From assembly GCA_951406725.2 (NCBI GenBank), contig OX597819.1:9672001-9736000 (forward strand): 64,000 nucleotides of DNA, in the 5' to 3' direction. The notes beneath the pieces are model-generated. The model searched no databases, was not told the DNA's origin, and saw only the letters and a program-made list of their open reading frames with translations. How positions within the stretch are numbered: position 1 is the first letter of the stretch; the number at the start of each line of letters is the position of its first letter. The DNA is from Octopus vulgaris. Taxonomy: Eukaryota. Positions 38,247 through 51,382 of the stretch are shown piece after piece. Both the position numbers and the translations under genes were made by a program.

Positions 38247-38322
38247 ATGAATCACCGGATTACCAGGCAGTTGGTCTATTCCAGCCTCTATTTGCTCAGT
38301 GTTTATACGGTGGCGACAATAG
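38247..38322 (+). CDS. Coding exon 1 (signal peptide) of a cadherin-FN3-EGF protein
   Basis: Acceptor tttttcctatcag ends at 38233; ATG in aaaATGa context; MNHRITRQLVYSSLYLLSVYTVATI is signal-peptide-like; donor AG|gtaagt in phase 1, matching the next exon. Confidence 0.7.
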
Positions 38323-38477
38323 GTAAGTTAGGTTTTCAGTTTTTTGTTTTTTTTCATAACGTTTGTGCCTGTGTGTCTGTGTGTGTGATTAATCATTCAA
38401 TTTATAAATGTATGTTAAAGCAAAAAAAAAACTATATATATATACCAATGAATCGGAACAGATATTCATTTATATAT

Positions 38478-39056
38478 GCTGGCAGAAACACGGGGCGAAA
38501 TGCTTAGAGGTATTTGCCGCTACGTTCTGAGTTCAAATTCCGCCGAGGTCGACTTTGTCTTTCATCCTTTCGGGGTCGATAAATTAAGTACCAGTTATGC
38601 ACTGGGGTCGATGTAATCGACTTAATCCCTTTGTCTGTCCTTGTTTGTCCTCTCTGTGTTTAGCCCCTTGTGGGTAGTAAAGAAATAGGTATTTCGTCAG
38701 CAGCTACGTTGTGAGTTCAAATTCCGCCGAGGTCGACTTTGTCTTTCATCCGTTCGGGGTCGATTAAATAAGTACCAGTTACGCGCTGGAGTCGATATAA
38801 TCGACTTAATCCGTTTGTCTGTCCTTGTTTGTCCCTTCTGTGTTTAGCCCCTTGTGGGTAGAAAAGAAATAGAAATAGGTATTTCGTCTGCCGTTACGTT
38901 CTGAGTTCAAATTCCGCCGAGGTCGACTTTGCCTTTCATCCTTCCGGGGTCGATAAATTAAGTACCAGTTATGCACTGGGATCGATGTAATCGACTTAAT
39001 CCCTTTGTCTGTCCTTGTTTGTCCCCTCTATGTTTAGCTCCTTGTGGGCAATAAAG
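38478..39056 (+). mobile_element. SINE family C head-to-tail trimer
   Basis: Three units of about 190 bp joined at agaaata|ggtatttcgtc. Confidence 0.85.
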
Positions 39057-39692
39057 AAAAAAGAAGAAAAAAAAGAAATATATATATGTATGTAAGTATA
39101 TATATATATGTATGTATGTATATATATATATATATATATATAGATATATATATATATATATATATATATATATATACATACATACATATATATAGACGTA
39201 TACTCATGCATGTTTACATACATACGTACGTGTGTGTGTGCGCGCACACATGTATTTGTGTTTGTATGTATGATTTTATGTACTATGTATGTGATACTTG
39301 CACACCAAGTAACATGGCATCTTGTCAATGCTGGTTGACTTATCTGCACCTACCTGTTGCAATTCTCGCTGCTGCTGCTGCATACATTCATAATTGACAG
39401 GAACGCGGATAGATGTAAACAGCATAATTACTGGTATCATGATTGCATTTTGTTTTATTTGAGTGTGGGTGGGGGAAGTCTAAGGATAATTTAATTTAAA
39501 AAAGGTAGGGCATTACCCATGCACTTTGCAGGCCCTCCCAGGCTAGTGAAACTAATCTAGTTGATGTTCAGTTCAAAGATCTCTGAGTCAGTCTTTGAGG
39601 AAAAGGGGGAAATGTGGTTGGTCCGGAGAAAAAAGAGATCTTATCCGAATAATTGCAACAAAGTGAATTCGGTCAAAGGTACTCAAGGACAA

Positions 39693-39918
39693 GGTGGCGG
39701 TAGAACCGTTAGCACGCCGGGCGGAATGCCTAGCGGTATTTCGTCTGCCATTACGTTCTGTGTTCAAATTCCGCCGAGGTCGACTTTGCCTTTCATCCTT
39801 TCGGGGTCGATTAAATAAGTACCAGTTACGCACTGGAGTCGATGTAATCAACTTAATCCGTTTGTCTGTCCTTGTTTGTCCCCTCTGTGTTTAGCCCCTT
39901 GTGGGTAGTAAAGAAATA
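39693..39918 (+). mobile_element. SINE family C
   Basis: Full-length family match. Confidence 0.85.
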
Positions 39919-48010: not shown

Positions 48011-48337
48011 AAGGAGCACTCCGTCGGTTACGACGACGAGGGTCCCAGCTGATACGATCAACGGAACAGCTTGCTCGTGATATTAACGTGCAAGTGACTG
48101 AGCAATCCATAGACACGAGTACCCTTAACGTAGTTCTCAGGGAGATTCAGCGTGACACAGAGTGTGACAAGGCCGGCCCTTTGAAATACAGGTACAACTC
48201 AATTTTGCCAGCTGAGTGGACTGGAGCAACGTGAAATAAAGTGTCTTGCTCAAGGACACAACGCATCACCGGGAATCGAACTCACGACCTTACAATCGTC
48301 AGCCGAATGCCCTAACCACTAAGCCATGCGCCTTCAC
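48011..48337 (-). mobile_element. SINE with family A tail and a different head
   Basis: Tail shared with family A; head contains gtgtccttgagcaagacactt; TSD attttgatcacca; older copy at about 44485-44790. Confidence 0.85.
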
Positions 48338-49410
48338 ATTTTGATCACCAACACAATGCAGGAGAAGAGACGAACTGCTAATCTTTCAGCTGGTTGTCCT
48401 TTTTACTAATTTGGACATCTACAAACCGAGAAAGAAACCTCGACGTGATCACTCCACTTACTAGAAATAACAGTTAAGTGTGTGTCAAATCACAACATAT
48501 TGTCTTAAAAGGTGACATTGGATAATGAAGGCAAGGATACAATATCTATGGAAAAAGAGGGAAAGGTCACGTCTAGAACGCCTTTCGATTTGAGTTGACC
48601 AACAGCAACAAGAGGCATTCAAAATCTTATTTTGTTTACTGTTTGCTTCTTTGGATCATAATTGATTTACTGTGACTTCCATAATGAAATCTTGTCATTG
48701 CTCGACTTCTCGCACATAGTGGAGTTAAAGAGTAGCAAAACGATAGTCTCTGGTGTTCCGTTCACAATCAAAATGGAAAACTAGCTGGACTTCATTTTAC
48801 CCACAGTAAGATTGTTCTTTCCATGCAGCAAACCTGACAAAATACTCAACTACACAATGATAAACCGAATGAATAATATTAACTTTTGTTGTTGTAGGCT
48901 GTTTAGTTCTCTTAAAATAGCCCGGTACTTTAAAGAATTTTAGTGATGGCAATCCAGTATTTTCAAATAGTTTTCTGAGACTGCATTATCTAATATGAAC
49001 TCTTTCACAGGTGTGATGTGAGAAGGAATTGTCTCTTATATCAAAACAGGTTGAGCAACAACTTACTAACAACCTATTTTACAGTTACGTAGACAAGGAC
49101 ATTAAAGATTAAATGTGTTTGTCAGAGAAATTTCATAAGATCTGCAGTGAAAAAAAAAACCCCATCACGAGCCAGAAATCATGCAGCTCAGTGGTTACCT
49201 TGAAGCTCTCATTAACTCCCCGTAAATGACTATTAAATAAATTATCGTAAATTAAATATTCGTTCGTCAAACAGTGCAAAAGAAACATTCTATTCTGTAT
49301 ATTATCTTTATCCATATTTAATAACCAGGGAGGCTTTCTTTTTTTAATAGTAAAATATCAATATATTATATTAATACATTATATATAACATACTATATTA
49401 ATATAATATA

Positions 49411-49805
49411 CTAGCAGTATCACCCGGCGTTGCTCGGGTTTGTAAGGGAAATAACAATATAAGCATTTTTAGAGATGTAAAGTATAATAGCCATCTCAAT
49501 ATGGCTAACCACAAAGGGGGGTGTTACTGTAGCTTTTTACGTTCTGAGATTTAATAATAAATTTTTAGAGAGTTACTTCCCTTATATATGCCAAAAATGC
49601 ATTAAAAATGGGAAAAATTTATGGTAATTTCTTTTTTAAATCGTAGACTCATCGTAGACGCGCGCTAATACCCAGAAGGGCTCGATATGAATCACGACTA
49701 TAAGATACCCGGTTTTGGTTAAACTGCACCGCAAAATGTGGGAGTAGTTAGGAATCTAAATCGTAGGAGACAGACAGCACACAACCTCTCTTTTATATAT
49801 AAAGA
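49411..49805 (-). mobile_element. Non-autonomous Helitron just upstream of the EGF exon
   Basis: Reverse complement of the family; ends about 84 nt before the exon start. Confidence 0.85.
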
Positions 49806-49888
49806 CTATATTAATACATTATATTTAAAACACTTTTATTATAATATCCATGATGCTTATATTGTTCTCTTTTCATCTTTCCTTTTAG

Positions 49889-51382
49889 TTCATATGCGCC
49901 CGGACTGTGACAAATTCGACCAATGTTTAATTCGCTCTCCATGTGCCCATGGGGGAACGTGTGTTTCGAAAGCTAATAATTTCACCTGTCACTGCACTCG
50001 AGGCTGGCGAGGCGAAACATGTGAGAATGAAGATACATGTGCTCACAAAGTCTGCTTGAACAACGGCACTTGTAAGATGACGTCCCACAACGAATTCAAG
50101 TGTAAATGTCCGGATGGATATGTTGGTGAGTTTTGCGAGTTCTCAAATCCATGCACATCTATTCCGTGCCAAAATGGCGCCGCGTGTAGAATACGTTCTA
50201 ATGCCACTTTTCAGTGCGATTGCTCTCCAGGATACTCCGGTGAAGTGTGTGACTCATTGGACCCATGTGGTTTGAAACCTTGCAAAAATGGAAAGTGTAT
50301 AGCAGTTACCGAAAAGGATTTTAAATGTCAATGTAAATCTGGTTACACTGGACCACTGTGTGATGTGTTTAATTTTTGTAGCTTACATAACCCTTGTCAT
50401 AATAATGGAACTTGTATTCCTACACAGAAAAACTCCTATAAATGCAAATGTCCAACGAAATATAGGGGTAGGAATTGTTCTTACCTCGATCCCTGTATTG
50501 CTATTAATTGTCAAAATGGAGGAACATGTCATATCAGCAATATTACAGGAAAGCATTGTTTGTGTAAACCTGGTTTTATTGGAGGAGAATGTCAAAGGAG
50601 GGATTTATGTTATCTCTTGAAACCCTGCAAAAACGGTGGAACCTGTATCATGAACGATAACGACACGTACAAGTGCCTGTGCGTGAATGGTTCTATAGGG
50701 GGCCAATGCCAGTTATGGGACCCGTGCATTTCGGCAACATGCCCGTCCAATAAATCGACAGGGTGTGTCAGGTTATCGGACATTGCATACCGATGTAAAT
50801 GTAAAGCCGGTTACACGGGGGACCTCTGTGATTTGGACGCATCTGGTTGCCAATTTTCCCCTTGCAAGAATAATGGCTCGTGTCATTTGGCATTTGACAC
50901 ACCTGCAGGTTACAAGTGCCGATGCGCAGGGGTGTATTCAGGAATCCACTGTGATGAGTGGGATCCATGTATGATAAATAGTTGTTATAATGGAGGTACC
51001 TGTTTAAAATTGAATGGTGGAAGCTATACCTGTTCATGTCCAAAGGGTTATGTAGGGAAAATGTGTGAAATAGAACTAGCCTGTCATAAAGATATTTGCT
51101 TGAACGGTGGTCAGTGTTTGGTAATTTACAAGCAACACGTATGTGTTTGTTTGGAAAACTTTACTGGTCTTTATTGTCAGGAAGAAATAACATGCCAAAA
51201 TGCAACATGTTATAATGGCGGGTTTTGTAAAAACAACGGCGTTTGTCAGTGTTTGCCAGATTTTACAGGTGAACATTGCGAAACTGTAAATCCTTGTCAT
51301 TCAAACCCGTGTCTTAACGGTGGAACTTGTCGAGGAACTACCGATGGTGGATTTAACTGTACATGCATGCTTTCCTTTGAAG
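49889..51382 (+). CDS. Coding exon 4: about 13 tandem Notch-type EGF repeats
   Basis: Acceptor ctttccttttag, donor AG|gtaaga, 1494 nt, phase 1-1; repeated C-x(4-5)-CxNGGTC...CxCxxGY/FxGxxC; the last repeat lacks its sixth Cys, implying a further exon. Confidence 0.95.

Follow-up and report, generated by a model that had tools for sequence, protein, structure and literature searches.

The four coding exons found between positions 38,247 and 51,382 of a stretch of Octopus vulgaris DNA (GCA_951406725.2, contig OX597819.1, positions 9,672,001-9,736,000 of the forward strand; this whole stretch of 64,000 nt is called the window) appear to constitute the first half of a gene for an adhesion G protein-coupled receptor (GPCR) of Octopus, a reading to which we assign a probability of roughly 80% on the basis of the sequence comparisons described below. 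The gene is real and has already been annotated automatically as an adhesion GPCR (‘ADGRE1-like’). Its product is predicted to consist of a signal peptide, two cadherin repeats, an FN3 domain, either 14 or 3 EGF repeats, a HormR-like domain, GAIN/GPS and a seven-transmembrane (7TM) region. The features identified on the window were the following:

38247-38322, + strand, exon 1 (76 nt), with the ATG and a likely signal peptide (codons 1-25)
41288-41902, + strand, exon 2 (615 nt), encoding two cadherin repeats (residues ~27-230)
47490-47744, + strand, exon 3 (255 nt, 85 codons), encoding a putative divergent FN3-type domain with two conserved Cys
49889-51382, + strand, exon 4 in its long form (1494 nt), encoding 13 EGF repeats, the last of which is finished by the next exon
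49889-50125, + strand, exon 4 in its short form, encoding 2 EGF repeats and stopping at an internal donor, as based on records P0001 and P0002
50126-50131, + strand, internal alternative 5’ splice site GTGAGT within the coding sequence of exon 4
51383-64000, + strand, intron 4 (>12.6 kb), running past the end of the window

The introns between the four exons are all GT..AG introns of phase 1, and the spliced exons (2,440 nt, being 813 codons plus one nucleotide) are free of stop codons, with a product identical to residues 1-813 of P0008 (CAI9723770.1), an O. vulgaris record of 1,549 aa. This confirmed the initial annotation, made from the sequence alone, in which four exons had been proposed to splice in frame over some 813 codons. 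Comparison of P0008 with the window using tblastn gave no match beyond residue 814, so intron 4 must exceed 12.6 kb, and the exons for the 14th EGF repeat, HormR-like domain, GAIN/GPS, 7TM and tail are, by this sequence comparison, located downstream of the window. A repeat or transposon artefact was ruled out on the grounds that the exons have open frames, show conservation and are joined by splicing.

When exon 2 was used as query, Octopus records carrying GPS and 7tm_2 domains were retrieved, with identities of 100% for O. vulgaris and 92% for O. bimaculoides, and all ten octopus records retrieved were found to carry the GPS/7TM part. Pfam E-values for P0001, P0003 and P0008 were ~4e-9 for GPS and ~3e-40 for 7tm_2 (for P0008, PF01825 at 4.4e-9 and PF00002, the secretin-type 7TM, at 3e-40). 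Beyond residue 813, P0008 continues with a 14th EGF repeat, a HormR-like domain, GAIN/GPS, the secretin-type 7TM and a tail. The cell-surface adhesion or signalling protein that had initially been envisaged, with downstream exons for a transmembrane domain, agrees with this continuation into GPS and 7TM in P0008 and the other octopus records. The option of a secreted protein was not sustained, as the annotated forms run into these domains.

The short-form record P0001 was modelled on a 54-row alignment (mean pLDDT 75.5), with the resulting structure comprising two cadherin-like sandwiches, an all-beta domain, EGF repeats, the helical and beta parts of a GAIN domain, and seven helices. Comparison with adhesion-GPCR 7TM structures gave Z ~26-27 at a root-mean-square deviation (rmsd) of 2.5-3.3 over ~250 residues, and the GAIN matches of the model had Z 21-23 (residues 507-774 with BAI3 GAIN 4dlo, Z 21.1, rmsd 3.3, 240 aligned; residues 443-766 with ADGRG6 ectodomain 6v55, Z 22.8, rmsd 15.2, 295 aligned). 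Among the 54 aligned rows the GPS tripeptide is HLT in 37, HMT in 16 and gapped in 1, with its H and T invariant (53/53), as is F769 in P0001 numbering (53/53). The octopus cleavage site is HL/T, then SFSVLL. According to PMC13197933, the cleavage site of adhesion GPCRs is His-Leu/Ile-Ser/Thr and the tethered-agonist consensus TxFxxLM; octopus fits this site and six of the seven consensus positions. The near-invariance of cleavage site and agonist residues over 53 rows fits selection on the canonical mechanism. The O. bimaculoides models P0002, P0009 and P0011 stop after about four transmembrane helices and P0006 has an odd insert, which is probably due to an assembly or annotation gap.

At the N-terminus, a hydrophobic stretch at ~residues 9-27 (19-residue Kyte-Doolittle mean 1.71) and a helix predicted for residues 4-21 in the P0001 model point to the signal peptide that had been called at the outset, which from these sequence features we grade as likely for codons 1-25. 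Exon 2 contains the two cadherin repeats claimed for it (Pfam Cadherin PF00028, 2 stretches, E 9.4e-17); these were modelled with pLDDT of 79-93 and gave Foldseek matches to cadherin structures. Exon 4 contains 13 Pfam EGF stretches, namely 12 complete repeats and five of the six Cys of a 13th, and the whole of P0008 contains 14, contiguous up to the HormR-like domain, in agreement with the 13 or more repeats first counted. None of the 14 repeats fits the calcium-binding consensus of EGF repeats, and eight fit the O-fucose consensus, which is known from Notch-type interactions. A homodimer prediction for the Cad-Cad-FN3 part scored 0.08 against a mark of 0.32 and speaks neither for nor against binding.

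The FN3 domain attributed to exon 3 received indirect support from relatives and from modelling, but none from Pfam, which gave no fn3 match on the octopus sequence itself. In the same slot, Pfam fn3 passed the cut-off in 10 of 25 proteins scanned from relatives, with three more below it, and was likewise found in Lingula between cadherin and EGF. A profile built from the 10 rows that passed, all non-cephalopod, scored octopus exon 3 at 14.5 bits, compared with 8.3 for the best of 500 shuffles; an arthropod-only profile was weak (10.2 versus 9.4 in shuffles). Matches of exon 3 in the atlas were to Ig/fn3-like clusters (0.93-0.94), and its region was modelled as the all-beta domain of P0001. 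The whole-model fold searches were dominated by domains other than FN3 and EGF, and a single-sequence fold of the N-terminal part was unusable (pLDDT 32). A divergent FN3-type domain is thus supported indirectly, by profile and model, and is the weakest part of the domain assignment.

Splicing was investigated with contigs over positions 47360-51500 from four runs of four studies, these runs being guessed to be RNA and containing the spliced form. The joint between exons 3 and 4 was found at the predicted GT..AG in contigs of all four runs, bearing out the junction as first drawn, and long-form exon 4 was covered in all four as well, with a single contig of 5,021 letters covering exon 3 and the entire exon 4. 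The contigs extend 703-930 letters upstream of exon 3, where 688 are needed to reach the ATG via exons 2 and 1. Use of the in-frame donor GTGAGT at 50126 skips 1,257 nt, equal to 419 residues or 11 EGF repeats, and would reduce their number from 14 to 3; precisely the 419 residues after 50125 are absent from records P0001 (O. vulgaris) and P0002 (O. bimaculoides). In three of the four runs one contig stops right at 50126 and a second begins so as to span that position, the pattern expected of a branch. Contig depth falls after 50126 in three runs, a drop that is given no weight here in ranking the forms. In Mercenaria and Dreissena, paired gene models likewise part ways after EGF2, with 413 and 180 residues skipped, respectively, and gene models of a short form with three EGF repeats were identified for Mya and one unnamed row. 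In Lingula models the EGF number (17-37) varies at other points than EGF2. From these gene models and the indirect RNA sign, it is likely that the gene has long and short spliced forms with 14 or 3 EGF repeats. Loss of 11 EGF repeats would shorten the stalk by ~30 nm if it is extended.

Read-through of the exon 4 donor would reach a stop codon ~15 codons on, and a secreted form could in principle arise via intron retention. No contig covered positions 51391-51500, so the absence of the read-through form from the contigs is no evidence against its existence. A protein of cadherin and EGF domains that is confined to cephalopods and either secreted or single-pass is nevertheless extremely improbable, given the GPS/7TM part in every octopus record retrieved and the occurrence of the architecture far outside cephalopods (see below). 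Regarding the start of the gene, record P0010 uses an in-frame ATG at 38214, which adds 11 codons upstream. A polypyrimidine-AG resembling an acceptor lies at 38232-38234, 13 nt upstream of the exon 1 ATG, and the length of one contig of run X1 places its start near 38232. There may be an upstream 5’ untranslated exon alternating with an extended first exon that has the ATG of P0010.

A number of points weigh against the identification as a receptor with two spliced forms. The link from exon 4 to the 7TM is known from public gene models, with the exons concerned lying beyond the window. The RNA sign of the short form is a contig break at the donor and not the short junction itself, exon 5 also being beyond the window, and one of the four runs is without a contig break at 50126. 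The Octopus records are without the C-terminal PDZ-type end that many relatives carry (31 of 62 complete non-Octopus family rows; among other 7TM rows the figure is 18 of 159). Within the linker between the two cadherin repeats, N126 (50/50 aligned rows), D158 (50/50) and D210 (49/50) are conserved, unlike the acidic residues of DRE and DxNDN, all of these being calcium-ligand positions of cadherins. The linker thus keeps only part of the usual calcium ligands, so that classical cadherin adhesion is not assured; with several of them missing, the binding partner may well be heterophilic.

By analogy with other adhesion GPCRs, the receptor is likely to sense cell contact. It would cleave itself at the GPS during synthesis, with the N-terminal fragment remaining bound, and the cadherin-FN3 tip would bind a partner on a neighbouring cell or in the matrix. 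The EGF stalk may serve as a spacer whose length is set by splicing. A pull on the tip would load this stalk so that the tethered agonist is exposed or repositioned, upon which the 7TM would couple to a G protein, with Gs being a guess by analogy with ADGRG2/4/6. Isoforms of ADGRE5 that differ in EGF number are described in PMC13197933 as altering ligand affinity.

The same receptor might instead use a different mechanism, in which its Cad-FN3-EGF part serves as a ligand, shed or tethered, or binds heterophilically, and signalling is independent of the tethered agonist; we consider this unlikely, though far from negligible. Agonist-independent and non-cell-autonomous modes have been described for adhesion GPCRs (PMC13197933 and PMC10592476). 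The tip appears dispensable in some lineages, given echinoderm members without Cad-FN3 and a tardigrade member without FN3-EGF. The degenerate cadherin linker and the O-fucose consensus in 8/14 EGF repeats would also suit such a mode, whereas the near-invariant cleavage site and agonist residues of the 53 rows argue against it and for the canonical mechanism.

Comparison of the octopus GAIN-7TM core with solved sequences gave ADGRG2, ADGRG4 and ADGRG6 (GPR64, GPR112 and GPR126) as best matches (E 1.7e-59 to 5.7e-49), with ~33-37% identity in the 7TM, and the HormR-GAIN arrangement of ADGRG6 is also present in the octopus receptor. The ectodomains are dissimilar, being of CUB/pentraxin/SEA type in ADGRG2/4/6 and Cad-Cad-FN3-EGF in octopus, and the two fall in separate clades (100/100 for the family of the octopus receptor). 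With Pfam, CUB, pentraxin and SEA were found on ADGRG6-type rows and not on P0008. Neither membership in ADGRG2/4/6 nor an exclusive sister relationship to vertebrate G2/4/6 was recovered in the 39-row tree described below. ADGRE5/CD97 and ADGRE1 resemble the octopus receptor in having an EGF run before the GAIN domain and splice forms differing in EGF number (3-5 in ADGRE5; PMC13197933). Their core similarity to octopus is much weaker, however (E 1.9e-23 and 1.5e-20). They differ further in that the octopus EGF repeats do not fit the calcium-binding consensus (0/14) and are accompanied by cadherin and FN3 domains. On sequence, the database label ‘ADGRE1-like’ is not orthology and the octopus receptor is not an ADGRE.

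Of the adhesion GPCR subfamilies named in the accessible portion of PMC13197933, CELSR/Flamingo (ADGRC) alone has cadherin repeats. Cadherin repeats, EGF, HormR, GAIN and 7TM are common to its plan and that of the octopus receptor, CELSR1 ectodomain was Foldseek rank 2, and several records (Patella, Dreissena, Pomacea, Gigantopelta) bear the automatic name ‘cadherin EGF LAG seven-pass’. A shortened CELSR/Flamingo paralogue, from which the laminin-G domains and the majority of the cadherin repeats have disappeared, is, for all this, very unlikely. CELSR has about nine cadherin repeats (fitting the CADH9 title of 8vy2) and is not known to have FN3 at that position, whereas octopus has FN3, a long pure EGF run and two cadherin repeats (2 Pfam stretches in P0008, and at most two by family profile in 72 rows), and no LamG family was found on P0008 by Pfam at E 0.05. 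The octopus core is nearer to ADGRG by sequence search, with ADGRG6/G2/G4 as the nearest solved sequences and no CELSR chain among the best 60 of 80 matches. When 12 further long or unplaced matches were checked by Pfam none had a cadherin domain, and a profile search of proteins of 2,115-5,000 aa gave four matches, none of them CELSR.

Drosophila Mayo/Ketchup (ADGRX; CG11318/CG15556) are adhesion GPCRs of invertebrates that belong to none of the nine vertebrate subfamilies (PMC6900090 and PMC13197933). They consist of GAIN and 7TM only, unlike octopus with its full ectodomain; springtail members of the octopus receptor’s clade, P0088 (811 aa) and P0219 (short), are similar to them in showing GAIN and 7TM domains only. 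A relationship to Notch, Delta, Crumbs or Fat was excluded as the gene ends in GAIN-7TM, and the initial view held that no named family, be it of cadherins, Notch or Crumbs, has this domain order. The order is shared with unnamed predicted proteins from molluscs, from arthropods and from Lingula and Owenia, which fall in one 7TM clade and vary in EGF number.

In searches with the GAIN-7TM part, the top ranks went to proteins that have Cadherin, fn3 and EGF domains, among them those of scorpions, spiders, horseshoe crabs and sea spiders. The order Cad-Cad-FN3-EGFn-GAIN-7TM occurs again in gastropods, bivalves, a chiton, the brachiopod Lingula, the annelid Owenia, chelicerates, myriapods, crustaceans and hemipteran insects. 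In a survey of 272 7TM-bearing proteins, 72 had Cad-FN3-EGF-7TM, all 72 in that order; the profiles used derive from 54 family rows, and the survey is partly circular and includes isoforms, with Pfam confirming the order independently. The EGF number is ~5 in chelicerates, 12-15 in molluscs and up to 37 in Lingula, of which isoforms P0136 and P0276-P0278 (31-37 repeats) have the database name ‘notch homolog’ yet are family members. Most of the other mollusc rows have a C-terminus of the form [ST]-x-[LVI], and so do three unnamed mollusc rows placed beside Octopus.

In the 39-row 7TM tree, for which a careful search was completed, 16 family rows and three echinoderm rows form one clade (100/100), with molluscs at 98/93 and arthropods at 99/95. 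Vertebrate ADGRG2/4/6 form a separate clade (100/100), other invertebrate receptors are nearer to G2/4/6 (89/84), and the deeper order is not settled. A quick tree of 95 rows agrees (family clade support 99, 52 rows). Both trees were built from sequences other than CELSR/Flamingo and Mayo/Ketchup. Branching inside the family clade broadly tracks animal groups. Its named rows include no vertebrate and no fly, which is not proof of loss. The echinoderm records P0146, P0269 and P0271 have EGF-only N-termini with no Cad-FN3, and the N-terminus from Patiria opens with what looks like a signal peptide. The tardigrade member has cadherin without FN3 and EGF. Judged by sequence, this is a widespread clade and not a cephalopod-specific one. 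The lineage-specific protein of the initial annotation, and with it a cephalopod cadherin innovation, must therefore be abandoned, the architecture being common to other molluscs, Lingula, Owenia and arthropods, and the present receptor has no bearing on such innovation.

Invertebrates hold adhesion GPCR subfamilies outside the current scheme (PMC6900090), and the clade described here is an ancient subfamily, apparently without a name. No description of Cad-FN3-EGF-GAIN-7TM was found in the literature searched, subscription papers on octopus cadherins being outside its reach, and the supplement of PMC6900090, which covers O. bimaculoides and Lingula receptors, may include the 7TM of this family in a cluster without a name. 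Three supplement files of PMC6408891 gave no match for cadherin, fibronectin or the accession, and the accessible portions of PMC11682238, PMC8660763, PMC12716839 and PMC7535936 make no mention of the architecture. The present analysis places members from a brachiopod, an annelid, a tardigrade and echinoderms in the family and points to a splice switch in EGF number that octopus and bivalves share. We suggest tentatively, at somewhat less than even odds, an undescribed second lineage of cadherin-bearing adhesion GPCRs, independent of CELSR/Flamingo. It would go back to the ancestor of protostomes, and its core, to judge from the echinoderm members that have no cadherin tip, to that of bilaterians, and it would be missing or stripped in model animals, with a mollusc splice switch after EGF2, from bivalves to octopus, setting 3 or ~14 EGF repeats and so tuning reach or force. 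The classification of adhesion GPCRs was built on vertebrates, flies and worms, with cadherin repeats taken as the mark of CELSR/Flamingo. If true, a separate cadherin-bearing subfamily would add a branch, cadherin having been joined to the GAIN-7TM core twice, and misleading database names (CELSR-like, ADGRE1-like, Notch-like) would be corrected. The switch between 3 and 14 EGF repeats would offer a natural test of ectodomain length against receptor range or force threshold.

The introns of the gene contain microsatellites and interspersed repeats. In intron 1, an interspersed repeat of 190 bp is present in ~2.9 tandem copies at positions 38515-39048 of the window, with more copies throughout the window. 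A GAG/GAC-rich low-complexity array of ~650 bp at 30147-30792 opened long frames on both strands, and stop-free frames at 7451-7903 and 3263-3655 resemble transposase fragments.

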